A stretch of 64,000 nucleotides of DNA from Bdellovibrionota bacterium (GCA_044351795.1 JBILFA010000002.1:13838-77837), one strand, 5' to 3'. Shown: positions 1,262-40,802, numbered from the stretch's first letter. Numbers and translations are program-made. Notes: generated from the letters alone by a model not told the origin.

Positions 1262-4200
1262 CTACATGACAGGGTTCGAGGCAATCTGCTGGTCTAGAAT
1301 AATCTTCTGCAACTCCAGAGCACGCTCGTTCTGCGGCTCAAAGAGCAATATCTTTTCGACCTCGAGTCGAGCCTGAGAAACCTTGCCTTGCTTGAACAGA
1401 ACGCCGGCAAGGGAATACAGCATGTCGATGCTCGCTGGGTGAAGCTCGAGGTAGGCATTCAGAAGGTTCTCGATCTCCCCAAAGCGCCGGAGCGGATATC
1501 CAAGCTGTAGAACTCCAAAGATAGCTCTGTGGTTCTCCGGATTCCTCTTGGCTGCTTGCATAAAGAAGTCGAAGGCCGTCTCCTCCTGGTTCCCTACCAT
1601 GGCACACAACCCTAATCCTGCAAGCGCTACGTCGTAGCCGGGCTCGACTCGGAGAGCCTCCTCAAACAAGGCTTTCGCCTCGGGCCATCGTTGGGCGTCT
1701 GCGATGAGGGCACCTTTTCCACACAAAGCTCTGGCGCACGCGGGATTCTCATTGAGAACTCGCTCGTAGATGAGCGCCGCTGCTCCGAGATCACCATCAA
1801 GCACCAAAAACTCTGCTTCGAGACACCTGGCTCGCTGGAGCTGTGACGTGCTCAGACCCGTCGAGGACGAGACCTTGTCTAATTCGGTCTTGGCCTCCTC
1901 AAAGAGCCGTTGTCGCTTGAGGTCCTCGACCTTCTCCAAAATACTCTCAAGGTAGCTATTCCCCTCTACTGTAGCTCTTGCCATCGGCACTGAAGTAATA
2001 GTTCCTGAGGTCGTCGGCACCTCTGGAAGTTTCACGTGCTCGCTCTCATGGACCGCGGTGTGCCTTTGAGGACTCTCAGAGTTAACTTTCCACTCCGTAA
2101 TCCTCTTCGAGAGCTCTGCCAAGGACTCCTGGAGCGGATTAGTCGGGAGCTGAGCGGATTCTGATTTCGCTTCATGAGCCCCACCACTCGGCAACATCCC
2201 CCTTCCGACCTCCACTGGAGATGAAACCGGCACTGTAGGATCTGCCATGGACACCTCAGATTCACGCTCTTTGAGCAGCTTTTGTAGTTCGAGAGCTGCA
2301 CCATGCGTCGGCGTAACATTCAAGACCTTTGTGAGCTCATCTCGTGACTGGCGTAAAAGCCCTTGCTTGAAGAGGCAGCCCGCGTAGCAATAGCGGATCT
2401 CTGTATCATCGCCCTTGACCGCCAGATACCGCTCGAGAACCCGCTTCAGTTCCTCTAAAGAGCCGAGCTGATATGCACATTCCATGAATTGATGTACCGC
2501 AACCAGATGATCAGGTGCGATATTGAGGGCACTGCGTAAGTACGGAACGGCTTCTGAATGCTTGCGATCCAACAACTCGCACATGCCTCGACCCGTCAAC
2601 ACCTTTGGATCTTCAGGATCTATCGTCAAGGCACGCTCGAACATGGCCTTGGCATCTTCTATCTTGGATTGCGCCAAATACACTGCTCCAATCGCCTTCA
2701 GAACACGGACCGACTTCGGATCCATTTTCTCGGCCTTGCGCAGATGCTCGAGAGCGAGATCGAACTCCATACTCTTGGCAGCGAGCTCACCTACCTCAAG
2801 ACTATCCTGAAACTCTGCCGGATTCATGCTCATGTCGTAGACGCCTGTCATTTTTGGACTAGCGTCTTGCCGAGAGATCCCGACAATTCGTTCGTACGCA
2901 AGAATGGTGGAGTCGATCGCTTTTTGCCATGTATGGGACCGCGCCATATCAACCAACCCCGGCTTTATCGGCGCATAGTAAGCGGCCATCACGGCAGAAG
3001 CGATTGAGTCTTCACTACCCGGAAGACAATAAAAGGCTTTATCTCCTACGTAGTCAGCTGTGGTGCCGGTACGGGTCACCACGATATTTTTCCCGTGTGC
3101 TGCAGCCTCGAGAGAGACCAACCCAGGCAGCTCGTACCAACTCGGTAGAACGTGCACTCGCGCGGCGGCATACGCAGATGAAAGCATCTCGGGAGAAAGA
3201 CGATCGAGGATCAAAGTCTTTCCCCTGCGCTTGAAGGAGCGAACAGCTCGCTCGTACTCCGGTTGATACGAAAAACCACCTGCTGCAAGCACTACCGTCA
3301 GATCGCTGTCCTCGAGAGCCTTGAGCAACATTAGCTGGTTTTTACGGCTCTCAATACGGCCGACACACAATACGAAGTCTTTGACTGCATACTCCTTCTC
3401 GAAAGCATCCGAGGTAGAAACAGCCCCTACCTCGTGGCCCAGCGGAATTTCAACTACATTCTTTGCTTCTAGATAATCACGCCGGAGAGCTCGTGCTTCT
3501 CCCGCACCGTTCGCGAAGAGCGCTGCTGCATGCTGAGCGATCCAGTCGCATTGGAAACGAGGAGCCCTGGGAACTGCAGACGAGTCTGTGCACGCGCTCA
3601 ACCACCAATCGTTGTTCTGTCCTCGATTTACGTACTCAACGAGGCGAGACGCTACGGCATGCGACTGGTTATGGAAATCGGGAAGATCTTCATAGAGGGT
3701 AGTAACGACGTATGGAATCCCGGCAGTGTGGGCTCGTTGGGCCAGCTCTCGGGTGTAGTCGACCGTGGCGAAGTTGAAAAGGTGTACGAGGTCGAATTGC
3801 TTCGGGTCTTGCATCGCATCGACATCAACGACTGCGTCCCATCCGCGGCTCATCAAACCGTCCCGCAGCTTTTCAAGAACCACTGTATCCCCTCCTCGGT
3901 GCGTGAAGGTGCTGGGGCGGTTCTGTATTAACACTCGGTTTTTTCTCGACGGTGTGTTTGTTGTGGTTGTCACGGTCTTCTCCTTACTGTGCTCCTCCCT
4001 CTTGAGCTCCCGCGGAGCTAAAGAAAAACCGAGCGATCGATAGATATCAGTTACACGTTCAGCAATTCGGGGCCAACAATTGCGCTCACAATACGCCCGC
4101 GCGGTACGCCCAAGCTCCTCGCGAAGCTGTGGATTTTGGAGTATCAATTCGGCTGCTAATCCCGGACCGTAGCCTGCGGTGAGGTGCCACACGGCATCAC

Positions 4201-26013: not shown

Positions 26014-27252
26014 ATGAAATTAACTACGCAAAATATCGCTCTTGGCACCCTGATCCTGAGCCTTACAAGCTTTTTTCTGGTGAGTTGTCAGCTAGTAACC
26101 GACCTAACGGATTCCGTTCGCCCCAAAGCCTTGGGCCAAGTAGAGGGGTCGGAAGAGCTCCCGATATGGTCACCGCTCTCTCTGCACACAGCCCCCCAAG
26201 CTAGCAAGCACGGCGGAGCCGTACTAAACGCTATCGAGAATCCTAGCGCGCCCGGACAACTACTATCAGCGGGCTCCGATGGTTCAATCATCGCATGGAA
26301 CCTTGAAACCTATTTAGGTCACCGGATACTTTCGCTGCCGACCTCCATCTCTCTCGCTGCTTTTGGAGAGCGCACACCGATGCTCGCGTCGTATGGACCC
26401 GACGGTATCTCAATCAGGTGCATCACCGGCTGTGAGCAGACCTGGCTACTCAACCGATTGAAGATCAGACCAACCGCTCTCGCGTTTCAAGGTGGGGATG
26501 CAGCTCTGCTCATCGCCGGAGCCGACGGGCGGATTTACCGCTGGCGTTTCATCGACGAGGCCAAGGTACGATCCGTCCAAGAGCAAGAAAAGCTTCTCGA
26601 GCGCTACGTGGCTCACCAAAACATCGTCAGTTCTGTGGCATCTCACCCGTTCGGTCGAGCTTTTTTCACCGGAGATTGGAACGGCGCTCTGTTCGGTTGG
26701 CTTCCCTACACCGCAGACCCCCACGGCGGTGCCTATGACAGAAATCTGTTTGGGGGTCGTTTTTACTCAGATAAAATCACTTTTGTTCAGGCCCTCAGAA
26801 CGCCGGACAGGGGGATCTCGGCGATGAGTGTGTCCTCCTCAGGGGAACGGCTTGGCTTGGGAAGCGAAGATGGATACGTCGAAGTGTGGGAGGTCAAGGG
26901 ATTCGTCCAATCCGCGCGTGAGGCCCTGCATGCGGGCCGGGTTCTATCGGTTTCATTCGATTCAACCGGCAATCGCATCGCATCCGTGGGTCGCGACATG
27001 ATGGTATCGGTTGCGTCTATGGAGAGAGACCCCAGCTTCCGCATCTCACCCCAAGCGACCCCGTGGAAACTCATTCCCGCCACTCATCAACGGATCGAGA
27101 ATGCTAAAGATGTCATCTTTCTCAAGAGCGGTAATCTGATCGTAACCACAAGTGATGGAGCTGTGGCTGAGGTCAGTGACCTCAAAGCCTCCGTACCTAC
27201 ACCTGTACCGACCCCACACACAGCAAACAAAATTCAGGACTCAGATTACTAA
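26014..27252 (+). CDS. WD40/beta-propeller repeat lipoprotein
   Basis: Signal peptide with lipobox FFLVSC. Repeated WD-like blades: GSDGSIIAWNLET, GADGRIYRWRF, GDWNGALFGW, GSEDGYVEVWEV, GRDMMVSVASM. Confidence 0.75.
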   Translation: MKLTTQNIALGTLILSLTSFFLVSCQLVTDLTDSVRPKALGQVEGSEELPIWSPLSLHTAPQASKHGGAVLNAIENPSAPGQLLSAGSDGSIIAWNLETYLGHRILSLPTSISLAAFGERTPMLASYGPDGISIRCITGCEQTWLLNRLKIRPTALAFQGGDAALLIAGADGRIYRWRFIDEAKVRSVQEQEKLLERYVAHQNIVSSVASHPFGRAFFTGDWNGALFGWLPYTADPHGGAYDRNLFGGRFYSDKITFVQALRTPDRGISAMSVSSSGERLGLGSEDGYVEVWEVKGFVQSAREALHAGRVLSVSFDSTGNRIASVGRDMMVSVASMERDPSFRISPQATPWKLIPATHQRIENAKDVIFLKSGNLIVTTSDGAVAEVSDLKASVPTPVPTPHTANKIQDSDY

Positions 27253-27321
27253 GAGAAGCGAGACAACGCCTGCGCCTGATTGCAGCAAACCGCTGACCAG
27301 GGTATTGCTTGGAATAATTCT

Positions 27322-27864
27322 ATGAGCACGACCCCATACATCCTCGCAAAGCCGAACCTTCCTCTCCGCCTGGTTCTTGTCGTTGCGGTGGGCACAGCAG
27401 CCCTCGATCAACTGACCAAGTACCTGATTCTCATGAATTTCTTGCCCGGTGAGATCCTGCCAATCATCCCGGAATTCTTCAACCTGACCTTGACGTTCAA
27501 TCTCGGGGCAGCCTTCGGCCTGTGGTCTGCGCTCTCTGATGGACTACGGGAAACGGTGCTTGCCCTTACCAACCTCGTTGCACTTGGAGTCGTCGTCTAT
27601 TTCATGCGACAGCCGAGTTACTCGAGCAGAGCAGCTCAGACGGCATTAGCGGGCATCCTTGGGGGTGCAATCGGCAACATCATCGATCGTTTCGTGCGAG
27701 GCTCCGTGGTAGATTTTCTCGATTTTCACATCGGTACCACTCATTGGCCAGCTTTCAATGTGGCGGACAGCGCCATCTGCACCGGAGTGGTAGTCCTGCT
27801 TTTACTCTCTTTTTTAGGGCCGGAAGAGACAGCGTCGAGAGAGATAACGAGCACCTCGGCGTAG
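27322..27864 (+). CDS. lspA: Lipoprotein signal peptidase (signal peptidase II)
   Basis: LDQLTKYLI, FNLGAAFG, GGAIGNIIDR, VVDFLDF...WPAFNVADSAICTG are all conserved LspA blocks. The start was trimmed to the ATG at 27322. Confidence 0.85.
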   Translation: MSTTPYILAKPNLPLRLVLVVAVGTAALDQLTKYLILMNFLPGEILPIIPEFFNLTLTFNLGAAFGLWSALSDGLRETVLALTNLVALGVVVYFMRQPSYSSRAAQTALAGILGGAIGNIIDRFVRGSVVDFLDFHIGTTHWPAFNVADSAICTGVVVLLLLSFLGPEETASREITSTSA

Positions 27865-28203
27865 AGGCTCCAAGAGGAGGCAGGAAAGAGAGATTGGCGT
27901 AAAGCTCGAGCCATGGCCTAGATGATCGCTAGATGATCGATTGTCTAGTTCGGTTACCCGTTGCCCCACCTCTTCGCTCCCTCTACAATCCAAGGCAATT
28001 GTGCTCGGACCGGTGTACGCCCAGCGTCATCTCTAGGGATGCATTCAGAGTAGCGCTCACGTACTCTATAATCGAGCTTTATCGTATCCCTGTGAAGGCT
28101 GGATAAGGAGAGGAAACCCCGCTCCATCCCAGTCGAATCAACAACTCCGACGAGCCGCACTTATGACGCTGCTCAGCGATTTATGTGAAGGAAAATATCG
28201 GCG

Positions 28204-28518
28204 ATGCCTCTCAAATCTCTGCGTATTCTGACTTTTTCAATTCTCTTGGCAACAAACGTGGGCTGCAGCTCTAACAAGGCCGCTAACCCCGGCAGTCCCC
28301 TCGTCGGTGGCACATTCAACGAATCGGAGAAGATCACCGAGCCGAAAACCACCGAAGAGGAGCGCTTCATCGAACTACAGGAAAAGGAGTTGGAGAAGCA
28401 GCGCAAAGAGATCGACGATCTCAAACGACAAAAATTTCATGATGACTATCTCCGCACGCGATATCCCAAGGAGAGCCCGGAAGGAAGTCCATCGCGTGAC
28501 GGTTTTGGAGGCTACTAA
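28204..28518 (+). CDS. Small lipoprotein, charged/coiled-coil
   Basis: Lipobox LATNVGC|SS. The Shine-Dalgarno is GAAGGAAAA. The stop overlaps the next start (TAATG). Confidence 0.6.
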   Translation: MPLKSLRILTFSILLATNVGCSSNKAANPGSPLVGGTFNESEKITEPKTTEEERFIELQEKELEKQRKEIDDLKRQKFHDDYLRTRYPKESPEGSPSRDGFGGY

Positions 28519-29432
28519 TGCTACATGTTCATAACAATCTCGCTCGCGCGATCTTTGTCGGCGCCATTGCCCTCGTTGCTATAACAGGGTGCACAAAACC
28601 CAAAGAGACCACCGCCATAGGCGCCGCAACGGGCGGCGCAATTGGAGCCGGACTGGGAGCGATCATAGGCAACCAAACCGGCGATGCCGGAAGCGGACTT
28701 GCGATCGGCGCTGCAGCGGGGGCTGCGACCGGAGCCCTCATCGGTAATGCGCTTCAAGCGCAACAAGAATCCGTGCGTTCTCAAGACGAGGCGATCGAAC
28801 GCCAGGAGCGTATGATGGCTGCTCAACGCACTGAGATCGCGGAACTCCGTAACCTAAACCCTGACGTCGTAGAACAGAAGCGCCTCGCTCTCCAGAAGCG
28901 CGGACCATCTCCTTCTTCTTATTCCGCCCGTGCTACCAGTACCGGCAGCCCTCAATCTCTATCACGCAACTCATCCGATCCATTAGCTCGCCTCGACATG
29001 AGATCGAAGTCAATCGGAGAGAGGAGTCTTCCTACTCCCAAAGGCAAAGTAGCACCTGTGCGTGCAGTAGAGCAGCCGCGTCGCGTCGCACCGACCCAAT
29101 CCAAGACTGAGCCAGCCGCAGGTGAGCCCGCGGTAGCTAAGCAGGTTTCAATGGCCGCAGAATCCTCTGATTCGTGCGGAGAGGCAGAGAAGGAGCGCGC
29201 TTCGGCACAAAATGCTATGGACAGCTCTGACAAGCTCTTCCACCTCCGACGCGCCCTACGCTTATGCCCGAACAACGCACGCATGCACCACGAACTAGGG
29301 AAGGTGTACGCGTCGATGGATCGCGCGAGCGATGCTGAACAGGAATTCAAGCAAGCGCTCGACATAGACCCATCATATGCTCCCGCTAAGCAGAGCTTGG
29401 ATCAGTCATCACCTACTAATATCAAATTCTAA
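28518..29432 (+). CDS. Lipoprotein with a glycine-zipper segment, a coiled coil, a disordered linker and C-terminal TPR
   Basis: Lipobox AITGC|TK. Glycine zipper: GAATGGAIGAGLGAIIGNQTGDAGSGLAIGAAAGAATGALIGN. The C-terminus carries TPR-like repeats (ALRLCPNNARMHHELGKVYASMDRASDAEQEFKQALDIDPSY). Confidence 0.7.
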   Translation: MLHVHNNLARAIFVGAIALVAITGCTKPKETTAIGAATGGAIGAGLGAIIGNQTGDAGSGLAIGAAAGAATGALIGNALQAQQESVRSQDEAIERQERMMAAQRTEIAELRNLNPDVVEQKRLALQKRGPSPSSYSARATSTGSPQSLSRNSSDPLARLDMRSKSIGERSLPTPKGKVAPVRAVEQPRRVAPTQSKTEPAAGEPAVAKQVSMAAESSDSCGEAEKERASAQNAMDSSDKLFHLRRALRLCPNNARMHHELGKVYASMDRASDAEQEFKQALDIDPSYAPAKQSLDQSSPTNIKF

Positions 29433-29469
29433 CACGAACGGCCGAAAAGATCCGTAGGAGGGACACAGT

Positions 29470-30156
29470 ATGCAGCGCTTGGTACTTTCGATGATTCTCC
29501 TGCTCTCTGCCTGTGAGAACTACAGGTTTGGCGCTACTGATGTGGCAGCGCTGGGTGGCGCTGCAGCAGGTGCCGGTCTCGGGGCAATTATAGGAAACCA
29601 AACCGGCCACACGGGAGGTGGTATCGCGATCGGATCGGCTGCAGGAGCACTCGGCGGCGCCTTGATAGGTTCGCAAATTGAGAGGCAGGACCGAGCGCTC
29701 GAGGATCAGAGCCGCCGAATCGAGGAGAACGACCGAGTACTGGCAGAAAATCGCAGGCTCCTTGAAGAGCTACGCCAACGCGGAATTGACGTACGAGACT
29801 CAGAACGAGGAATCGTTGTAAATCTACCCGACGTACTCTTCGCATTTAATAGCTCCAACCTCACGCCGCAAGCTCGCTCGACGGCCAAAGAGATCGCACA
29901 TGTCATCAATCAAGCTCCAACCCGGAGAATCTCGATAGAGGGTCACACTGACAGTATTGGTTCGATCGATTACAACTATCGCCTCTCGGATACACGAGCC
30001 CGAGCAGTACGCAGCGAGCTCGAGCGCTATCAAGTAGCTCCTCGTCGCATAATGACACGCGCACTCGGAGAGACCGAGCCAATCGCTTCGAACCGAACAG
30101 ATCAAGGCCGTCGTCGCAACAGGCGCGTCGAGGTAATTATCGAAAATGCTCGCTGA
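29470..30156 (+). CDS. OmpA-family (Pal-like) peptidoglycan-binding lipoprotein with an N-terminal glycine zipper
   Basis: Lipobox LLLSAC|EN. GAGLGAIIGNQTG is identical to the preceding gene. The OmpA_C block is NLPDVLFAFNSSNLT...IEGHTDSIGSIDYNYRLSDTRARAVRSEL...NRRVEVII. The Shine-Dalgarno is AGGAGGG. Confidence 0.85.
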   Translation: MQRLVLSMILLLSACENYRFGATDVAALGGAAAGAGLGAIIGNQTGHTGGGIAIGSAAGALGGALIGSQIERQDRALEDQSRRIEENDRVLAENRRLLEELRQRGIDVRDSERGIVVNLPDVLFAFNSSNLTPQARSTAKEIAHVINQAPTRRISIEGHTDSIGSIDYNYRLSDTRARAVRSELERYQVAPRRIMTRALGETEPIASNRTDQGRRRNRRVEVIIENAR

Positions 30157-30555
30157 GAAATTGATTAACGTGCACGTAGAGCTCTATCAAGGACGTAATT
30201 ACCCTACTCTACAATCTCCTCTATCTGTCGGAATTCTCGCATAACAAACAACAGAAAATACAAACTGAGTGGTATATCGCAAAGCTCTCGTTTTGCACCG
30301 CAAAGAGAGGCACCTCGCGTCTAGTGGATTCATAATCAATCTCGCTGCAAAAGATGTTCAGAAGCTCTTTACGTTTAGCCCGAGCACTGCGGGAACTTGG
30401 CGAACCCCAAGAGCTATTACGAGAGCCAAATTCGACGCTGACCCTCATGGTCAACGAAATGAGAAGCGAAGCTGCTTGAAATATTGGGGTTTTCAGGGCT
30501 GGAAGCCCTTCCTTCCCTTGCCAATCCGGACCCGACCCAATAACATCACCCCCGT

Positions 30556-31536
30556 ATGCATAGGCTTAGTCATAGCATCCTTAGTTTGGTACTCTTGGCA
30601 CTCCCACTCACTCAGGGACTGAGTTCCTCTGCCTCGGCCTCTCCCCCCCAAGAGGTCATTGTCGATGCCGTGGTAGCCACAGTCGACGACAAGCCGATAA
30701 CTCTGAGCGAACTGCGCGGTCGACTCGTTCCGCCCAGGCAGTTGAGCCTGACTGAGGCAGGAAAAGACCAAGATGCGCTCAAGGCTCTCGATGCATTGAT
30801 CTTCGAAAGACTCATAGAAGAGGAAGCGACGGCCAAACGAATCTCTGCAACAGACTCCGATATCGAGGAGTACCTAAACGAAGTAGCCAAGCGGAACGGC
30901 CTCTCGAGAAGTGAATTCGAAAAGGCGCTCCTTGCCGAAGGAAGAACCCTATCAGCGTACAAACAACAGGTTCGACTAGACATACTCCGTACCCGCCTCG
31001 CCTCTTCTATGACTCGAGGCGGTGTCAGCATCAGTGATGCGGAGGTCGACGAGTACATCCGCAATCACTCTGAGATAATCCAATCCGAAGGAACAGTAAA
31101 ATTACGACAGATCGTCATCTCGTCTTTCGGGCGAGATCCAACGACCCTTCGAGCCCGTACTTCAGAGATCTTCCAAGCGCTCGAAGGTGGTGAGAAATTC
31201 GCCGACTTAGCCACGCGATTCTCCGAGGGCCCTCAGGCCTCTGACGGTGGGCTGATAGGGGTCGTTGCCGAAAAAGATCTAAGTGAAGATATATCATCTG
31301 CTATTGCTTCGCTGAACACGGGCGAATGGAGTGCCCCTCTGGAGACAGAGGCAGGTGTGCAGATATTTTTCATCGAGCAGCGATTCAAGGGTTCGGAAGA
31401 GGGTGAGACCGATGATAGCGACGCGCTACGCAATGAAGTCAGACAAAGCCTTCAACAGCAAAAGAGCCAAGAGAAGCTCTCCTCGTTCTTTTCGGGCGAG
31501 CTGTACAAGAATCATGCAGTAGATAAAAAGCTGTAA
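30556..31536 (+). CDS. SurA-like periplasmic chaperone / parvulin-type peptidyl-prolyl isomerase
   Basis: Signal peptide, then a SurA_N-like helical region (VATVDDKPITLSEL...), then one PpiC rotamase domain (LRQIVIS...GGEKFADLATRFSEGPQASDGGLIG...W.S.P.ETEAGVQIFFIEQR). Confidence 0.75.
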   Translation: MHRLSHSILSLVLLALPLTQGLSSSASASPPQEVIVDAVVATVDDKPITLSELRGRLVPPRQLSLTEAGKDQDALKALDALIFERLIEEEATAKRISATDSDIEEYLNEVAKRNGLSRSEFEKALLAEGRTLSAYKQQVRLDILRTRLASSMTRGGVSISDAEVDEYIRNHSEIIQSEGTVKLRQIVISSFGRDPTTLRARTSEIFQALEGGEKFADLATRFSEGPQASDGGLIGVVAEKDLSEDISSAIASLNTGEWSAPLETEAGVQIFFIEQRFKGSEEGETDDSDALRNEVRQSLQQQKSQEKLSSFFSGELYKNHAVDKKL

Positions 31537-33051: not shown

Positions 33052-35154
33052 ATGAAGGAGCACCACCAGACGACGATCTCAATCTCAGTCTTCTCTGCGC
33101 GACTCTTCTATGCCGACTCGCCCGACACTTCGCTCGAAACCGGCGTCCTTCATCACACGACACAAATACCAAGCAAGGGAATGATGAAGGTGTGCGTTTC
33201 CGCAGACGCCCCTGGATCGCTACTATGGATGGATGGACTGGCCATTCAAGCGAGCCGCACGCGATCCTTTGTAGAAGCACTGCGGCGAGGCGAGATCCCA
33301 AAGCCGATCGCTCAGCCCGGCTCTCTTCCTGCTCATATGCGCGTTCGGTATGTATCGCCAGGCACCATCGCTCTGTCCGACGAGACGCTCATCTCTATGC
33401 TCGGGCTAGTCCCTACCCTACTCCATACTATCGATTCCTCCGGCTATCGCACGTGTGACAGTTGCGGAAGCGCCGTGAGAATGTACAAAACCGCGGCGAA
33501 TCTTGCGGAGGAGATCCTGGAAGGACATAGGAATCAAGGTATCGAGATCCAGCTTCGTGCCTCGCCTGATCTCCTCACCCAGTGGGGAGAGACGCGAGGA
33601 TTCCGTCTTCAGGAATCAGGTAATGGATACTGCTTCATCGAGCTCGACTCCTTGGTTGCCAAGCCTGAGGCTTTTGAACGAGTTCGTAAGGTTCTCGACT
33701 CAAGCTGGTCACTTCCCACCGGCAGCGTGTGGTGTCTAAGCGATGATTCGACAACCGCATATGCTCCCTCTGGTTTCTGTATGCAGTGCCTAAGACCGGC
33801 ATCAGCGATTTCTATTCAGAGGCTTACTCACATCTTGCGGAAAGGAGCTGCTGACCCCCAGGCGCCCGAACTTCTGCTCAATGCATGTGGAACAACCGTT
33901 GCAGGGCTTTTGAGCTCATCGCTGTCAGTACTCGAAGAAAAGTTACTTACCGGCAAGATCTTGTCCCCCGCTCTTCGGGAGGAGCTGTGGGCTTTGAATC
34001 TCGAAGGTCTTCTCTTAGGCAGAACCGCTGATAGGCTCTCAGCGTCAGCACTGGCGCGTCTTGCCGTCATTACGGCAGCACTGGACGGCTCAGATGACGA
34101 CACGCTCGTTGTTGTGGATGTGCCGTGTGGTTTGATGTCGCCGAGCAAAAGCTCCAGTGCTGAGCGCATTCTACAGCACTCGGCGCGGCGTCGCACGACG
34201 GTCGTGCTGGAGCAACACAGCGGAGAGTTCCAATCAAGCACGGAAACTCGAACACCGCTCGGTACGGGTGTGAGTTTGGGTACCCTTCGCCTGAGAACGC
34301 CCCTGGAGTCCACATGGAAGGAAACGGATCTAGTCCAGGGATCACTCCACGTCATCCGCCCGCTCGAAACCCACTCGACCGAACCTCTCGCCGCAGACAT
34401 ATTCGCCGCTCTATCGGGGAAAGGAGCTCTCGACCAGCACGAAGCAGAGTACACCACTCGGCACTCTTGTGACGCTCACTTGGTCGACATGCGCCCTATC
34501 ACATCGTTGAACAGACGGATCTTGGCCCAACAGTTCGGCCTGTATGAACCTCTCACTAAACTCTATGCGTCCGCATTGGAAGCACGCATGCTGGGACTCA
34601 CTCCGAAGGATTTCAATCTGAGTAGTCGCGCTAAGCCGAATTACCTGTGTCCGAAATGCTCAGGTTTGGGAATAGTTCTCGAATCAGTACCGGGCTTCGA
34701 GCGTCCCCAGGCGCGCCCATGCCTCATCTGCCTCGGCACGAGATTTCGAACCCCGATCAAGGAGATTGAATTTCGAGGTCGCGCGTTGTGGCAGCTCTTG
34801 AATTCGACGTTTTCGGAGGCGGAGAGCGTTCTTCGTGCTCTTCCAAGAGTTGCGAACTCACTATCTCTTCTCAAACTGCTTGAACTTGATCACCTTCCCG
34901 TCGGTATGCCTGCCTGTTTGTTGAGTTTCTCCGAGCGCAAGCTAACAGCGATCGGTACCAGTATCCTTTCGGGAACAAAGTCTCGTCCGACCGTTCTCAT
35001 TATCGAAGAACCGTTTGCCGGTCTTTCCGAGAGGCAGGCAGCAGGATTGACCCAACTCATAACCAACCACGAGCTCGGTAAGGACGTGACTTGGCTCTTG
35101 GTTGGTCGAGATGCCCGCTTGGCCAAAGTCAGTTCCTCGACGCTCGAGGTTTAG
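33052..35154 (+). CDS. UvrA-like protein with both ABC ATPase sites degenerate (UvrA-fold relic, 700 aa)
   Basis: Collinear with UvrA. Cys pairs are retained (CDSC...CMQC; CPKC...CLIC). The C-terminus CPKCSGLGIVLES...PCLICLGTRFRTPIKEIEFRGRALWQLLNSTFSEAESVL...LLSFSERKL...PTVLIIEEPFAGL aligns to CEACQGDGVIKVE...[22 protein letters not shown]...LSGGEAQRV...LYILDEPTTGL. Both Walker A sites are lost (SADAPGSLL; PLETHSTEPL). NBD-I has signature LSASA and Walker B VVVDVP. Confidence 0.7.
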   Translation: MKEHHQTTISISVFSARLFYADSPDTSLETGVLHHTTQIPSKGMMKVCVSADAPGSLLWMDGLAIQASRTRSFVEALRRGEIPKPIAQPGSLPAHMRVRYVSPGTIALSDETLISMLGLVPTLLHTIDSSGYRTCDSCGSAVRMYKTAANLAEEILEGHRNQGIEIQLRASPDLLTQWGETRGFRLQESGNGYCFIELDSLVAKPEAFERVRKVLDSSWSLPTGSVWCLSDDSTTAYAPSGFCMQCLRPASAISIQRLTHILRKGAADPQAPELLLNACGTTVAGLLSSSLSVLEEKLLTGKILSPALREELWALNLEGLLLGRTADRLSASALARLAVITAALDGSDDDTLVVVDVPCGLMSPSKSSSAERILQHSARRRTTVVLEQHSGEFQSSTETRTPLGTGVSLGTLRLRTPLESTWKETDLVQGSLHVIRPLETHSTEPLAADIFAALSGKGALDQHEAEYTTRHSCDAHLVDMRPITSLNRRILAQQFGLYEPLTKLYASALEARMLGLTPKDFNLSSRAKPNYLCPKCSGLGIVLESVPGFERPQARPCLICLGTRFRTPIKEIEFRGRALWQLLNSTFSEAESVLRALPRVANSLSLLKLLELDHLPVGMPACLLSFSERKLTAIGTSILSGTKSRPTVLIIEEPFAGLSERQAAGLTQLITNHELGKDVTWLLVGRDARLAKVSSSTLEV

Positions 35155-35342: not shown

Positions 35343-35675
35343 ATGGCGCGGCTTTCCCGAGACAAGCGTTCCCAGAAAGGTGAGGCGGAGATGATGCTAT
35401 TCGGTATCGTCGTCATCCTCTGCGGCATACTCTCAGGCTCTTTGTGGGTCTTAAACTGGGTAAAAGACAGCAAGAACGCAAAGGTACAAGAGCACATGAA
35501 TGCCCGTTTTAAGCGAGGCACACCAGCTCCTGTCACAATCTCAAAAGACCCGGCCGCCTACTACGCGAATTGCCGGAAGTCTCCAGTTTCACTCATCAGC
35601 ACCACCATCAAGTGCCAAGTCATGGATGAATCCTACGGCGAGCTGTACCTTACGCCGTTCGAAACGATAGAGTAG
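35343..35675 (+). CDS. Small single-pass membrane protein (110 aa), hypothetical
   Basis: The ATG at 35343 follows GAGG at 6 nt. There is one TM segment (MMLFGIVVILCGILSGSLWVLNWV). The 5-prime part of the track ORF overlaps the upstream gene and was trimmed. Confidence 0.45.
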   Translation: MARLSRDKRSQKGEAEMMLFGIVVILCGILSGSLWVLNWVKDSKNAKVQEHMNARFKRGTPAPVTISKDPAAYYANCRKSPVSLISTTIKCQVMDESYGELYLTPFETIE

Positions 35676-35728: not shown

Positions 35729-37162
35729 CTAGAGAGTTTCGGTGAAAGAGCGCAATTCGCCAGCTCCAATATCGAATGCACGCCAGCCCTCGAGGCTGGG
35801 TATAATGACGATATCGTTTGCTGTACGTGCTACACCGATAAAATTGCCCTCTAAATCGACGATCTGATCGCCCTTCAATATCTGTTCACCGAAATCTCCA
35901 GTTCCTCGTAATCCCGCTACCGAGTACCGAAGATTACGTTCTCCCTCTTGAGTCAAGCGATCTCGGGGAAAGAGAAAATGTGTGGTAGCAAGCTCTCGAA
36001 TCTTGTCGCCGAATCCCCGAACGGCCCCTGTACGGACGGCCATCAAGGTTGGCATAAAGGAACGAGCATTCGTCTCGGTGACCGGCAAGGCGGCACCACC
36101 CTCAGCAGGAACGACGATGGCTAGTAACTCAGGCAAAAACGAAGCGCGATAGACGCGAGCCACCGATTGTCCCGAGACGCGGATATCCAGCGACTTCAAC
36201 TCCTGAGGATCGTCGATCCCTGACAAACCGAGGTCCGAAATAGGAGCGAATACCACCTGCTCTTGCCCACTTGCAACGGGCAGCAGCGACAAGACAGTTT
36301 GGTTTTTCGAATCACCCAATAGCGCCCGCCGAGTGACCACCACATCGACCTTGATGATCTTGCGCTCGATGTTACGAGCGAATGCCGTCGTAGCGCTCTG
36401 AGTGATCTTTTGCACCCTCTCGCGCGCCTCCGACCGCTCTACATCCGCCTCTCTCGCTCTGCGTAGCGCTACATCCGCAAGGTTTTTGCCAGCCTCCGCT
36501 TGAGATATAGCCTGAGAGGCGACGGAGAGCGCTTGCTCCCGCGCCTGTCGTGCGCTCTGGGCTTCCGCAAGTGCCCGCTCGCGTTCCACGAGAGCTTCTT
36601 CCGCCTTTCGACGTGCTTCATCAGCGAGCGTCTGCTGGCGTTGTACTTCAGATACGAGTTGCAACGACTTCTGCTCTTCAGCTGCAAGCTGTTTGGCCCG
36701 TTCCTCAGCAGTGCTCCTGTGGCGTTCAAGGTCCAACTCCCGCTCGGCAACTCGAGCAGCCAGTCGCGCCTCCCGCTCCTCGAAGGCTTTACGGGCCTCC
36801 TCCTGTATCTTCTCTAACTGCGCCGCTCTCTCTGTCGAGTCTGCCACGGCTTTCTGAAGCTGCTCTTGACTCTTCTTGGTCGAATCGAAATCCAAATCCG
36901 TTTTGCGCTTCTCGGATTCAATGCGCTGTTTGTCGCTCATTAAGGCTGCCAATTTTTTGCGCAAATCAACAGCTTCGCGTTCCTTCGCTTCGAGAGCAGC
37001 CAAACGGCCCTCATCCTGCTTCTCAAGCAGCTCCTTGGATTCCTTGAGCTGAATGAAATCCTGGACCGTCAGTGCACTGACAGGCCGCGCCTCAACTTCT
37101 GCCAGAGCAGTAAGGTACAAAAGCAGGAAAATGTCACACATGCCCACGAGAAACATCCGCAT
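35729..37162 (-). CDS. Membrane-anchored coiled-coil protein: ExbD/TolR/MotB-like Asp-containing N-terminal TM, about 240 aa of coiled coil, and a C-terminal degenerate trypsin-like (?) domain
   Basis: The N-terminus MRMFLVGMCDIFLLLYLTAL resembles the ExbD/TolR TM (tPfIDVmLVLLIIFM), with the Asp at the same relative position. Residues ~35-260 are E/R/K/A/Q-rich heptads. The C-terminal ~215 aa show a Trypsin_2-like pattern without the catalytic residues (ELLAIVVP in place of DLALLKV; GTGDFGEQ...VDLEGNFIGVA in place of GNSGGPL.d..G.viGi). The start lies 9 nt after the upstream gene's stop. Confidence 0.5.
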   Translation of the reverse strand: MRMFLVGMCDIFLLLYLTALAEVEARPVSALTVQDFIQLKESKELLEKQDEGRLAALEAKEREAVDLRKKLAALMSDKQRIESEKRKTDLDFDSTKKSQEQLQKAVADSTERAAQLEKIQEEARKAFEEREARLAARVAERELDLERHRSTAEERAKQLAAEEQKSLQLVSEVQRQQTLADEARRKAEEALVERERALAEAQSARQAREQALSVASQAISQAEAGKNLADVALRRAREADVERSEARERVQKITQSATTAFARNIERKIIKVDVVVTRRALLGDSKNQTVLSLLPVASGQEQVVFAPISDLGLSGIDDPQELKSLDIRVSGQSVARVYRASFLPELLAIVVPAEGGAALPVTETNARSFMPTLMAVRTGAVRGFGDKIRELATTHFLFPRDRLTQEGERNLRYSVAGLRGTGDFGEQILKGDQIVDLEGNFIGVARTANDIVIIPSLEGWRAFDIGAGELRSFTETL

Positions 37163-37171
37163 CGCTTCGAT

Positions 37172-37690
37172 CTACTCCTCGGAAGAGCCTCGATACTCAG
37201 GCATGGGTAGCAGAATAGTCAGCTTTCCCATTACATGCAGAAGGATCCCGCTCATTGTCGTAACATAAGCCAATGGAGCGACCAGAGAGCCTGCTATGAA
37301 TTGGGTGAGACACACGCCGAGTAACGTACCAAAGAGCCCCAGATACATCGGGATCTCCACGAGAAACTGGACAATCTTGAGATCTTCCTTTCTTCGTCCG
37401 GCGTTACTAGCCCTACGCACGGCAAACAGCAATGCAACGACTTGTAATGCAGCGACGGCACCGACATGGGCGAATAGCCAACCGGGAACCGTAGAGAAAG
37501 AGAACTGTTTCGGAGGGGTCTCAGACGTCTCTGCCAGAAGGTGACTTTGATGTGATGGAGGAGCAGGCCTTTCACCGTCGTCATGTCGGACGGTCAGCAC
37601 GGCCGTGACTCCCAGAATAGAGACCAGAAGCACTAGCAGAAGCAGCACCAACGGAATATGAGAACGAGTTGCGGAGTAGCGGTTCGGCAT
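37172..37690 (-). CDS. Minimal MotA/TolQ/ExbB-family-like membrane protein (4 predicted TM)
   Basis: IPMYLGLFGTLLGVCLTQF matches the family hallmark aPllGLlGTviGmi.aF. The following LVAPLAYVTTMSGILLHVMG matches la.gi.eALvtTa.GL..Aip. The ATG at 37690 is preceded by AGAGGA at 4 nt; the track ORF starts at a TTG at 37804. Confidence 0.5.
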   Translation of the reverse strand: MPNRYSATRSHIPLVLLLLVLLVSILGVTAVLTVRHDDGERPAPPSHQSHLLAETSETPPKQFSFSTVPGWLFAHVGAVAALQVVALLFAVRRASNAGRRKEDLKIVQFLVEIPMYLGLFGTLLGVCLTQFIAGSLVAPLAYVTTMSGILLHVMGKLTILLPMPEYRGSSEE

Positions 37691-37880
37691 GACATCCTCT
37701 CGAGAATCCAAGAGGATCTTCTCCCCTCGACTCTCAAGTTGTACCTCGTTTTGCGAGTAAAGCACCACGCCCGGTACAAGGCCCTCTGGAAAGACCGTGA
37801 CCAAAAGCGCCTAGAACTATCCTCGGCCCTGCGTACGCTCTGACAGAGCAGGTCGTTGTCCCGATAATTCTCGATGAGAG

Positions 37881-38120
37881 CTATTTCTTTCGCGAATCCT
37901 CTTCTGCCGCATGCAGGGGATACTCGGCGACATGTCCAAGCGTCGGATCGTAAGCAGCGTCCATAACAGGTTCGACATCGACGGGCTCTAACAACAACAT
38001 TACAAAGGGTAGGCAGCTCATGTCGACTACGGCTATATGTCCACGACTCTCTCGATATGAATTGATGAGCCACTGAAAATCCGGATCCGATAGTTCATGC
38101 GGATAAATCGGTCTTGCCAT
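37881..38120 (-). CDS. Small acidic hypothetical protein (79 aa), first gene of the putative three-gene module
   Basis: A strong Shine-Dalgarno AAGGAGGAG lies 7 nt before the ATG. No family was recognised. Confidence 0.55.
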   Translation of the reverse strand: MARPIYPHELSDPDFQWLINSYRESRGHIAVVDMSCLPFVMLLLEPVDVEPVMDAAYDPTLGHVAEYPLHAAEEDSRKK

Positions 38121-38587: not shown

Positions 38588-40072
38588 TTGAGAAATCGCC
38601 CTAAGCCCCGTAAACTGCCCTGCAATGGCCGGAAGGTCGTAAATGTTGCTTTTCTGGATGAGTTTCCAAAGGCCCGGAAATATGAACCGTCGGCCCAGGG
38701 AGCAACGAGCAGGCCTGTTGGGCCTGCTAAAGTCGTGACAGTCGTTGATAGCCGTATAGAACCCATTCTCATGCCCGCGCCAGAGCAACCCTCAATCAAA
38801 AGTATCGTCGAACATCCTGTTGTTAAAGTGTACGGTCCCACTGAGCACGCTCTCAGAAAGGACGAAGTCGATGACGACGCCCGCAAGGTTGTGTACCGCC
38901 TACAACGTGCCGGTTTCAAAGCTTACATAGTAGGAGGCGGGGTGCGAGATCTCTTGCTTGGTAAGCAGCCCAAAGATTTCGATATCTCCACAGATGCCAC
39001 TCCACGAGAGATAAAGGCCCTTTTTCGAAACTGCAGGATTATCGGACGACGCTTCAAGCTTGCTCATGTGTATTTCGCCCACGGCAAAGCGCTCGAGGTG
39101 TCTACATTTCGCGATGTCGCCGACACACCTGAGCCCGCCGAAGGGGAAGAGCATATTCAGAGTCCTACGGCGAGAGATAACGTATACGGTACGGAAGCTA
39201 CCGACGCAGTTCGCAGAGATATAACTATCAACGGTTTATTTCTCGACGTATCGACGATGGAGATCATCGACTATATCGGTGGTATGGATGACCTCAAGCA
39301 TGGCGTTATCAAGGTAATTGGAGAGCCGGAGGTTCGCTTCAAAGAGGATCCTGTAAGGATGATTCGAGTCGTCCGACACTCCGCGCGTAACGGCTTTCGC
39401 ATTGACCCGCTCTGTTGGGAATCGATCGTGCAGAACGCCGAGCTCATCACTCAGAGTTCGCAGGTCAGGGTGTTCGACGAGATAAAGAAAGATTTTTCGT
39501 CCGGCTGTTTTCTTACAATCCTTTCGCTTCTCGGGGAAACAGGACTACTCGAATTCCTACTTCCCGAGCTGCTTGAAAACAACGCTCGACTACTCTCGGG
39601 CGAGAGCGACTTTAGCCGCTGTCTCGAAAAGCTCGACGACCTGGCAGCACAGGGCGAAGATATCTCTCCAACTGTCGGACTCACGATTATCGCCATGTTC
39701 ACAGCGGGAGACTCTATATGGTTGAAGGATCTGGCCGAAACACTGCCAAACGCTCCTGATCTGATCGAACGCTTGAGTGCGTGCTTCACCAGACTTACCG
39801 TTCCTCGCAAAGAGCGGGAAAAGATCCAAATGCTGCTCTCTCTCTGGGCCCGCGTGCGCTCTACTCCGTTTCGTAACTTCAAACCCGGTATGTACAAACG
39901 CTCATCGCTGCTACACGAACTGATAACGCTCCTTGAAATCTCTCTTCTTTCTCGCGAAGACGAGCAGCGACTCAACCTGTTGCGACCCTTGCTTCACTCT
40001 GAAGACAATAGCGCAGAACACAGCGAGCAAGACGAACCTCGGGATCGAAGGCGATCTCGTCGAAGACGGTAA
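38588..40072 (+). CDS. pcnB: Poly(A) polymerase I
   Basis: [66 protein letters not shown] is nearly collinear with E. coli PcnB ([66 protein letters not shown]). The C-terminal tail is basic. The start is uncertain: TTG at 38588 in the track, first ATG at 38771. Confidence 0.85.
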   Translation: [494 protein letters not shown]

Positions 40073-40076
40073 TTGG

Positions 40077-40802
40077 ATGAACATTCTAGAAACCCACAAC
40101 GTCACGAAAAAGTACGGTGGTAGGAAGGTCGTTGACGGCGTTTCTATATCAGTCAAGGCGGGAGAGATCGTCGGACTACTCGGGCCGAACGGCGCCGGGA
40201 AAACGACGACATTTTACATGTGTGTCGGCCTGGCAGCGCCCGATACGGGTCGGGTATCGCTGAGCGACATCGATATTACGCGCGAGCCGATGTTCGCTCG
40301 AGCACGACTCGGCATCGGGTACCTACCTCAGGAAGCCTCTGTATTCCGCAAACTCTCGGTACGGGAAAACGTCATGGCGATACTCGAGACCATGGATTTC
40401 CCCACTGCAAAAGCAAGAGAGGAGCGACTCATAGAGCTTCTGGAAGAACTGGGCATTCGAGGATTAAGCGACAACCTGGCCAGCTCCCTGTCCGGCGGTG
40501 AGCGGCGCCGGGTCGAAATCACGCGCTGCCTTGCGCGTAACCCACGATTTATCCTTCTCGATGAGCCATTCGCAGGAATCGATCCGCTAGCGATCAAGGA
40601 TATTCAAGGCATAATATCGAAGCTCCAGGACAAAGGAATCGGGGTTCTCATAACTGATCATAACGTTCGAGAAACACTAGGTATTTGTTCCTCAGCTTAT
40701 ATATTGGTCGACGGTAAAGTATTGGAACGAGGCACCCCTGAGCAGATAGCTTCCTCAGAGAAGGCGAGACGATATTACCTCGGCGGTGACTTTCAGTTGT
40801 AA
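40077..40802 (+). CDS. lptB: LPS export ABC transporter ATP-binding protein LptB
   Basis: KKYGGRKVVDGVSISVKAGEIVGLLGPNGAGKTTTFYM, LSGGERRRVEI, ILLDEPFAGIDP, ITDHNVRETL. It lies immediately upstream of rpoN, as in many proteobacteria. The ATG at 40077 is 4 nt after the pcnB stop. Confidence 0.85.
   Translation: MNILETHNVTKKYGGRKVVDGVSISVKAGEIVGLLGPNGAGKTTTFYMCVGLAAPDTGRVSLSDIDITREPMFARARLGIGYLPQEASVFRKLSVRENVMAILETMDFPTAKAREERLIELLEELGIRGLSDNLASSLSGGERRRVEITRCLARNPRFILLDEPFAGIDPLAIKDIQGIISKLQDKGIGVLITDHNVRETLGICSSAYILVDGKVLERGTPEQIASSEKARRYYLGGDFQL

Follow-up and report, generated by a model that had tools for sequence, protein, structure and literature searches.

Proteins of the TPH-vWA type (Williams-Jones et al. 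2025, PMC12204202) have a predicted Asp-bearing trans-pore helix and a TolQ-like partner gene, with no tolR or exbD. They were proposed to reside inside the pentamer and to pass force directly into the periplasm via their own large C-terminal domain (PMC12204202). Because of these proteins, the idea of an axle which is itself the force transducer has already been published, as a prediction only. Furthermore, a survey of MotAB relatives described heterogeneous non-flagellar "generic ion transporters" having B subunits with compact peptidoglycan-binding folds (PMC12505986). Here, we analyzed a pair of genes, termed A and B, in a 64,000 nucleotide stretch of DNA from a Bdellovibrionota bacterium (GCA_044351795.1 JBILFA010000002.1:13838-77837), hereafter called the window. 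A preliminary description had read the locus as a stator-type module comprising a small MotA/ExbB-like channel protein and an Asp-bearing membrane protein with a long coiled coil and an inactive protease-like head. We consider it rather probable, with considerable room for doubt, that A and B form a self-contained, very small ion-driven motor of the MotAB/ExbBD/TolQR type, in which the axle carries the Asp and continues into its own periplasmic force transducer.

The two genes and their parts are located as follows, with positions counted from the first letter of the window; TM denotes transmembrane.

37172-37690, minus strand: gene A, encoding a four-TM membrane protein of 172 amino acids, the candidate pentameric channel subunit (called as an open reading frame, with the start chosen by homologue lengths and Shine-Dalgarno sequence)
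37211-37390, minus strand: TM3-TM4 hairpin of gene A (amino acids 101-160), with the sequences EIPMYLGLFGTLLGVCLTQF and LVAPLAYVTTMSGILLH, similar to the hairpin that lines the pore in MotA/TolQ/ExbB
35729-37162, minus strand: gene B, encoding a bitopic protein of 477 amino acids with TM helix, coiled coil and globular head, the candidate dimeric axle and force transducer
37097-37162, minus strand: N-terminal TM helix of gene B (amino acids 1-22, MRMFLVGMCDIFLLLYLTAL) with the buried Asp10, the candidate trans-pore helix
37040-37078, minus strand: juxtamembrane motif SaLTVqDFiqLKE of gene B (amino acids 29-41), on the periplasmic side of the helix
36413-37096, minus strand: helical linker of gene B (amino acids 23-250), rich in A, E, R, K and Q and taken as a coiled-coil stalk
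35732-36412, minus strand: C-terminal head of gene B (amino acids 251-477), with a predicted HtrA/DegP-type two-barrel trypsin fold, the presumed binding module

Three co-directional open reading frames (ORFs) had been predicted on the minus strand, namely gene A, gene B and an ORF of 79 amino acids, and all three were found in place. Gene A had been given a length of 172 to 210 amino acids. The longer form, which starts with TTG (37172-37804), does exist; the shorter form starting with ATG is preferred. Homologues of gene A mostly comprise 165-190 amino acids, and the internal ATG at 37690 is preceded by the Shine-Dalgarno sequence GAGAGGA; we therefore take the form of 172 amino acids as the true gene A. 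Gene B starts 9 nucleotides past the stop codon of gene A, in agreement with the preliminary description, and GAGGAG is located upstream of it.

Homologues were identified for both proteins, 67 for B and 94 for A, all of them unnamed and none with a precomputed Pfam domain. A scan of one genome per species in 185,579 species revealed 18 loci, which belong to metagenome-assembled genomes (MAGs) labelled Bdellovibrionota/Bdellovibrionales, Ca. Scalindua, Ca. Anammoxibacter and Brocadiaceae (Brocadiia), Lentisphaeria, Omnitrophota, Thermodesulfobacteriota and Pseudomonadota; two Thermodesulfobacteriota fragments contain part of gene B only. The nearest relatives of the pair, with 74% and 66% identity and the same gene order, are found in MAGs labelled Bdellovibrionota. 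At every locus including upstream DNA, a gene A homologue directly precedes gene B, is read in the same direction and ends no more than a few tens of bases before it; the next gene downstream of A is that of the single-pass protein with the buried Asp. A and B are thus conserved neighbours in A-then-B order. An all-against-all comparison of neighbouring ORFs revealed no third family common beyond close relatives, the sole other recurrent cluster being antisense ORFs inside gene A; hence, the conserved module consists of A and B. The pair is an obligate two-gene cassette.

Canonical MotA/TolQ/ExbB genes were found neither in the examined loci nor in the window, and no genes for TonB, TolA, TolB or Pal adjoined the pair at the examined loci. 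None of the three proteins matched a Pfam or NCBIfam model above threshold, and B gave coiled-coil noise only. A literature search found no paper describing the A-B family.

Protein A is a four-helix membrane protein essentially without a soluble domain. An AlphaFold2 (AF2) model of the monomer, with a predicted local distance difference test (pLDDT) score of 81, contained helices at residues 12-37, 70-95, 101-132 and 138-160. The basic segments are the N-terminus and the TM2-TM3 junction (RRASNAGRRKEDLK), and this charge distribution is consistent with an N-in/C-in topology as in MotA. Residues E112, P114, G118, L119, G121, T129, Q130, A138, P139, Y142 and G148 were invariant in 34 homologues of gene A; nearly all invariant residues of the family are located in the TM3-TM4 hairpin. 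The motifs quoted earlier for this hairpin and for the helix of B are present and represent the most conserved parts of each family. The pore-hairpin motifs P-x-x-G-L-x-G-T-x-x-G and A-x-x-x-T-x-x-G also occur in the A family and are invariant there.

The kinship of A to MotA/TolQ/ExbB was examined by profile alignment with hhalign. Hairpin templates originated from E. coli TolQ, ExbB and MotA, from MotA and TolQ of the PDB and from ten plasmid-borne homologues, and were used in sets of 7 and 17 sequences. Alignment of the A hairpin with the MotA/TolQ/ExbB hairpins gave P-values of 7.4e-5 (7 sequences) and 9.3e-5 (17 sequences) at a probability of 59-63%. Both helices were aligned in register, IPMYLGLFGTLLGV with ISPYIGLFGTVWGI and VAP...LAYVTTMSGIL with VAPGIAEALIATAIGL, so that GLFGT matched GLFGT, VAP matched VAP and TT..G matched T..G. 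Block-shuffled templates never reached the real score, neither in 600 trials (29.7 as compared to a maximum of 24.5) nor in 1000 trials (28.7 as compared to a maximum of 24.3), and reversed templates scored 10-12. When only the three E. coli proteins were used, the P-value was 0.005, a comparison with too little power; of the 17 templates tried singly as controls, TolQ gave the best result (P 0.0024).

Proteins of similarly small size have already been recognised in this superfamily: an annotated Pasteurella ExbB comprises 152 amino acids (L040:391-849) and an annotated Variovorax protein of the MotA/TolQ/ExbB family 146 amino acids (L044:369-809). A subunits without a large cytoplasmic domain therefore exist already, and the small size of A is not without precedent.

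The most conserved part of protein B is its N-terminus. The first 18 residues, MRMFLVGMCDIFLLLYLT, are near-invariant in proteins which are only about 30% identical overall; 12 of them (F4, L5, V6, M8, C9, D10, F12, L13, L15, Y16, L17 and T18) were invariant in 30 homologues of B. The sequence MCD[IVM]FL was found in 66 of the 67 family members, the exception being an N-terminally truncated fragment. The helix spans residues 3-22. Arg2 is the sole charged residue before it, and the 20 residues behind it contain 3 acidic and 2 basic ones, a charge distribution compatible with an N-in/C-out orientation of the anchor like that of MotB and ExbD. Like ExbD, TolR and MotB, B crosses the membrane once, and its conserved Asp is situated towards the cytoplasmic end of the helix. 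Of the earlier claim that the helix bears its Asp as in these proteins, the Asp itself was substantiated, as Asp10 is invariant; a sequence link to ExbD/TolR/MotB was not measurable. The helix segment is too short for a sequence test, and the case rests on the architecture, the position and invariance of the Asp and the partner gene. Behind the helix, S29, T32 and D35 of the juxtamembrane motif are invariant and L39 is nearly so; this motif may serve as a plug or as a contact to the A subunit.

In the window protein, the helix is followed by an Ala-rich AEVEA which can be read as a signal peptidase site. B might then be a secreted periplasmic protein with a cleaved signal peptide and A a functionally unrelated neighbour, the least probable of all explanations considered here. 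The helix is near-invariant across lineages, whereas the stretch behind it is variable among homologues (AEVEARP, SQVNPFH, SQNQGAT), often lacks small residues at positions -1 and -3, and reads SQVNPF at the AEVEA site in the Scalindua proteins; moreover, A and B are always adjacent. As far as the alignments go, an invariant helix next to a variable site is the opposite of the pattern of a cleaved signal peptide, and the conservation is far above that usual for signal peptides. An Asp in the hydrophobic core is also atypical for signal peptides. A cleaved signal peptide on B was therefore rejected. A lipoprotein signal was rejected as well, since a lipobox is lacking: Cys9 follows a Met and is situated too near to the N-terminus.

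An exhaustive search with A yielded two distant A-like proteins with readable downstream genes, P0194 and P0192. In the first of these pairs (L027:2190-3317), P0194 is followed by a protein of 190 amino acids (2745-3317) which starts with MNKSIVLAMCDILVL; its "AMCDIL" helix leads into a coiled coil, and a head is missing. Two DUF4230 genes are located directly upstream of P0194.

The long coiled coil rich in E, R, K, A and Q that had been predicted behind the helix of B agrees with the composition found: residues 23-250 consist of 18% A, 17% E, 12% R, 9% Q and 8% K, are also rich in L, and contain one Pro and two Gly. In 66 homologues the linker comprises 173-337 amino acids. Among 26 distinct linker lengths, 20 fall into classes 1 and 5 modulo 7 (12 and 8, respectively; chi-square P 7e-6, calculated on distinct lengths with relatedness ignored). 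Since linker lengths cluster modulo 7, insertions and deletions apparently come in heptads and the register is kept, as in a continuous coiled coil. The hydrophobic score of the a/d positions was only modestly higher than in shuffled sequences (5.07 as compared to 4.64 +/- 0.21). If continuous, the stalk would have a length of 26-50 nm across homologues, and of about 34 nm in the window protein, at 0.1485 nm per residue.

The head was modelled by AF2 from the last 228 residues with a 20-sequence alignment, giving a pLDDT of 89 and a predicted TM-score (pTM) of 0.87. Compared with the PDB by Foldseek, the model had 124 hits at E<=1e-3, the best of them with E 6e-6, a probability of 1.0 and a TM-score of about 0.45-0.5. 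Among the matches listed, 50 of 50 were serine proteases of the trypsin fold and 48 belonged to the HtrA family, including HtrA1, HtrA2, HtrA3, DegP, DegQ, DegS and M. tuberculosis HtrA. The head profile itself matched neither PDB sequences nor Pfam, including Trypsin_2 (PF13365). A weak hhalign alignment (P 0.02), which placed LKGDQIVDLEGNFIGVA on NSGGALVNSLGELMGIN of DegS, agrees with the fold result. In this alignment the position of the DegS Ser is occupied by a variable residue (K, P, R, E, T or M) and the oxyanion loop is shortened. In 20-30 sequences, the head contains no His or Ser that is invariant, and it has neither the conserved catalytic triad nor the GNSGG motif of HtrA-type proteases. 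Given the predicted HtrA fold, the lack of a conserved His or Ser and the variable nucleophile position, we consider the head a pseudoprotease; the proposal of a trypsin-like (S1C) head with replaced catalytic positions thus held. Other head residues are invariant, namely R128, D137, R140, G168, R170, G171, T172, G182, D183, V186, D187, G190, G194 and W211 (domain numbering), and may mark a surface conserved for binding. The profile of the head domain retrieved nothing but fragments of its own family, and no other architecture was found to carry this head.

These features can be combined in a model. A ring of A subunits, by analogy a pentamer, would surround a dimer of B helices, and Asp10 would face the conserved Thr/Ser and Gln of the A hairpin. 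By its protonation and deprotonation, the flow of ions, protons (or Na+), would turn the ring against the axle. Because A has no cytoplasmic domain and B has neither an ExbD-type nor an OmpA-type (wall-binding) domain, mechanical output would be possible only via the coiled coil of B. Rotation or tension would be relayed along the coiled coil over a periplasmic distance of about 26-50 nm, and the pseudoprotease heads at its end would hold on to a partner, a peptide or a protein of the cell wall or outer membrane. One protein would thereby do the jobs divided between TolR and TolA, or between ExbD and TonB. In its strongest form, the proposal is that of a previously unrecognised class of ion-driven 5:2-type motors, the smallest proposed, with a ring subunit of 172 amino acids and an axle forming a register-locked, periplasm-spanning shaft with pseudoprotease grips, all output being directed outward to the envelope of Bdellovibrionota, anammox Planctomycetota and further uncultured lineages. 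We put this forward tentatively, and doubt it slightly more than we believe it.

A number of results weigh against a motor. The Pfam model PF01618 matched protein A with 13.4 bits and E 0.066, missing the gathering threshold (curated cut-off 22.9); the match covers the EIPMYLGLFGT stretch, and of 34 family members only 6 reached E<1. In favour of a motor, no other Pfam family has as many matching members as PF01618, and the remote member P0194 gives the same weak match. A search of PDB sequences with the family A profile returned designed helical proteins and noise only, and no ExbB, MotA or TolQ chain. An exhaustive search of 1.84 billion proteins with a TM2-TM4 profile found 40 proteins, all from the same family, and no bridge to MotA/ExbB; the A family is therefore small and isolated. 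In the hairpin alignments, the HHalign probability was only about 60%, an unrelated DedA decoy gave P 0.01 in the single-sequence controls, level with ExbB alone, and E. coli MotA alone was not aligned in the right place. Foldseek found nothing significant for the A model (best E 0.76, with a full-chain TM-score to ExbB/MotA of about 0.2). For B, the models of ExbD/TolR (PF02472) and MotB (PF13677) gave no match, including the periplasmic domain. When the N-terminal 45 columns of B were aligned with TolR/ExbD/MotB by hhalign, Asp was placed on Asp, and 80 of 200 shuffles were as good. Furthermore, in the second remote pair (L028:622-1667), the A-like protein P0192 is followed by an ORF (1152-1667) with the helix MKPFLFAILTTLTIFYVT, in which Thr replaces the Asp of the family, a pair without Asp. 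Finally, there is nothing obvious to hold the ring still.

P0192 itself carries Glu at both otherwise invariant Gln positions (Q83 and Q130), an observation from a single metagenomic contig (n=1). In this pair the ionisable group may have moved from B to A, and the exchange of Thr and Glu hints at residues which form one buried polar or ionisable site common to A and B.

Several of these results suit a different role, the main alternative to the motor, in which B is a membrane-anchored periplasmic scaffold or regulator whose coiled-coil stalk presents a dead protease, A is an anchoring or gating partner, and the Asp and polar residues serve helix assembly and not ion conduction. The motor kinship of A lies below accepted thresholds, the helix of B has no detectable similarity to ExbD/TolR/MotB, and one remote pair lacks the Asp. 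Buried acidic residues also generally drive the association of TM helices, and an analogy is provided by EnvC, which FtsEX holds and which combines a coiled coil with a degenerate LytM domain. We nevertheless regard such a scaffold as rather unlikely. It leaves unexplained the in-register match of the A hairpin to the MotA/TolQ/ExbB pore motifs on both helices and the prominence of ExbB, MotA, ZorAB and TolQ among the top Foldseek hits; furthermore, gene order, tight spacing and position of the Asp copy motAB, exbBD and tolQR. Among the top 30 Foldseek hits for A, none of them significant, 16 were chains of ExbB, MotA, ZorAB or TolQ entries. The claimed MotA/ExbB kinship of A is thus weakly supported, by the profile alignment in register, and formal membership failed at the Pfam threshold; A is probably, not demonstrably, a very divergent member of the MotA/TolQ/ExbB superfamily.

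The top Foldseek probability for A (0.75, with a TM-score of 0.61 on the target) belonged to a type II ZorAB chain. Zorya employs MotAB-like motors with long coiled coils in defence (PMC12505986), and the taxonomic distribution of the A-B pair is patchy, as would suit an anti-phage or conflict system built on a motor like ZorAB. This is very unlikely: a PADLOC scan of A and B gave no defence-system match and no ZorA or ZorB, only coiled-coil noise against JetC, no ZorC/D-like effector genes are adjacent, and the coiled coil is located on the periplasmic B and not on the cytoplasmic side of A. In addition, the pair resides in syntenic housekeeping DNA of the window and its relatives (surA, pgm, pcnB, lptB, rpoN, rapZ).

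One Bdellovibrionales MAG (L004:1-5196, on a contig shared with L011) has the pair divergently adjoining a flagellar gene cluster in the order 135-amino-acid ORF without Pfam hit in flgB position, flgC-like rod-protein gene, fliE, fliF, fliH, fliI and fliJ. This neighbourhood could point to a flagellar or gliding apparatus for which the pair acts as an additional or substitute stator, a role which we consider extremely unlikely, since this arrangement was found in one lineage only and not seen in the others, where the flanks differ. Moreover, A lacks a cytoplasmic torque-generating domain and B a peptidoglycan-binding OmpA-like domain.

The third gene of the proposed module is located upstream of gene A.

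37881-38120, minus strand: acidic ORF of 79 amino acids, a lineage-specific neighbour outside the conserved module

The ORF is acidic (14 D+E as compared to 6 K+R) and has a strong Shine-Dalgarno sequence, AAGGAGGAG, as had been reported; its distance to gene A is 190 nucleotides. Among the loci of the pair, only those of close Bdellovibrionota relatives (L001, L009 and L010) contain it; a three-gene module was therefore rejected.

The window consists of ordinary chromosomal DNA with an even guanine-plus-cytosine content throughout. Its genes include gdh, glycosyltransferases, pheST, dapB, lspA, an OmpA-family lipoprotein, surA and pgm, as well as a UvrA-like ORF, pcnB, lptB, rpoN, rapZ, metK and glk. 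A run of envelope genes on the plus strand (27280-31536), located 4-8 kb from the A-B pair, comprises lspA, a gene for a glycine-zipper/tetratricopeptide repeat protein, surA and a gene for a glycine-zipper OmpA-family protein of Pal-like architecture (29470-30156); lptB is located on the other side of the pair. These surroundings, conserved in close relatives only, are suggestive of an envelope role for the pair.

Next to gene B, a 110-amino-acid single-TM protein is encoded convergently (35346-35675, plus strand); it matches no family and occurs in close Bdellovibrionota relatives only. An ORF of 700 amino acids (33052-35154, plus strand) has no Pfam domain and is kept beside the pair in close relatives at 697-702 amino acids. 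Its C-terminal third is weakly similar to the ATP-binding cassette region of UvrA (E 1e-17, far below the cut-off), and it may be a degenerate UvrA paralogue. Further away, lspA is adjoined by a gene for a WD40 beta-propeller protein of 412 amino acids (26014-27252, plus strand), a type uncommon in bacteria. The listed ORFs of pcnB (38588-40072, plus strand) and lptB (39933-40802, plus strand) overlap by 140 nucleotides; the lptB product of a relative comprises 253 amino acids, and the true start of lptB is therefore probably located downstream of the listed TTG.

If the motor proposed here is real, A and B would be a minimal natural machine of the MotAB/ExbBD/TolQR type, composed of about 22 TM helices and devoid of a cytoplasmic domain, attractive for studying how ion flow is converted into rotation. 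It would also be a second case of an axle acting as transducer after the predicted TPH-vWA proteins and would support the existence of many unrecognised motor-powered envelope processes. A defined question of envelope biology would also arise for the predatory Bdellovibrionota and the anammox bacteria, lineages which are hard to study, namely what a dead HtrA domain on a stalk of ~35 nm grips and why it is energised. Domain searches with curated thresholds miss the A-B family entirely, in keeping with homologues which are unnamed and devoid of precomputed Pfam domains.

Among the known systems, TPH-vWA proteins are the closest precedent. They have in common with the A-B pair a single-pass Asp-bearing TM helix and a partner gene of A type, without a separate tolR or exbD, and both are predictions only. 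In TPH-vWA the partners are recognisable TolQ homologues, a vWA domain serves as the head and the genes usually form heterologous pairs, whereas in the A-B pair A is below the Pfam threshold and B is a single gene with a long coiled-coil linker and a pseudoprotease head of HtrA fold. A large periplasmic domain on an axle helix is therefore not without precedent, since such fusions had already been predicted as TPH-vWA (PMC12204202).

The Tol and Ton systems resemble the pair in the A-then-B gene order with close spacing, the GLFGT and VAP...T..G motifs of the hairpin, the buried Asp near the cytoplasmic end and a periplasm-spanning element with a terminal globular binding domain; domain II of E. 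coli TolA is also a helix rich in A, K and E. They differ in being composed of three proteins, with TolA/TonB docking outside the ring via an SHLS/His helix and TolR/ExbD having a periplasmic domain of their own. In the A-B pair, one protein holds Asp helix, stalk and head, and A lacks the cytoplasmic domain of E. coli TolQ/ExbB. Features of a TolA/TonB transducer were not found in B: its helix has an Asp and no His, there is no Pfam TonB or TolA match, and the head is of HtrA fold.

MotA-MotB and PomA-PomB are similar with respect to the four-TM A subunit (N-in, C-in), the TM3-TM4 hairpin and the single N-terminal Asp helix of B. As compared to them, the A-B pair has no cytoplasmic torque loop, no plug or OmpA-like domain, and a cytoplasmic tail of 2 residues on B. 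GldL-GldM and PorL-PorM resemble the proposed pair as 5:2 motors in which a dimeric single-pass subunit forms a long periplasmic shaft to the outer membrane (PMC9389320, PMC8986121). GldL differs in having two TM helices and in carrying the key acidic residue itself, and GldM consists of globular domains and not of a coiled coil. Zorya ZorA-ZorB likewise combines a MotAB-like core with a very long coiled coil; in contrast to the A-B pair, the coiled-coil tail is cytoplasmic and located on ZorA, ZorB binds peptidoglycan, and effector genes accompany the motor. The pair does not fit the "generic ion transporters" of the MotAB survey (PMC12505986) either.

The head of B resembles HtrA, DegP, DegQ and DegS (MEROPS S1C) in its predicted fold (Foldseek E 6e-6 to 1e-4), and GDQIVDLEGNFIG aligns with GNSGGALVN..GELIGIN. 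It differs from HtrA proteases by the lack of a conserved His or Ser, the shortened oxyanion loop, the absence of a PDZ domain and the lack of any match to Trypsin_2 or other Pfam families. What is new as compared to all these systems is the combination: an A protein which escapes all models, together with a single-gene B protein which unites a cytoplasmic tail of 2 residues, a long coiled-coil stalk and a pseudoprotease head of HtrA fold.

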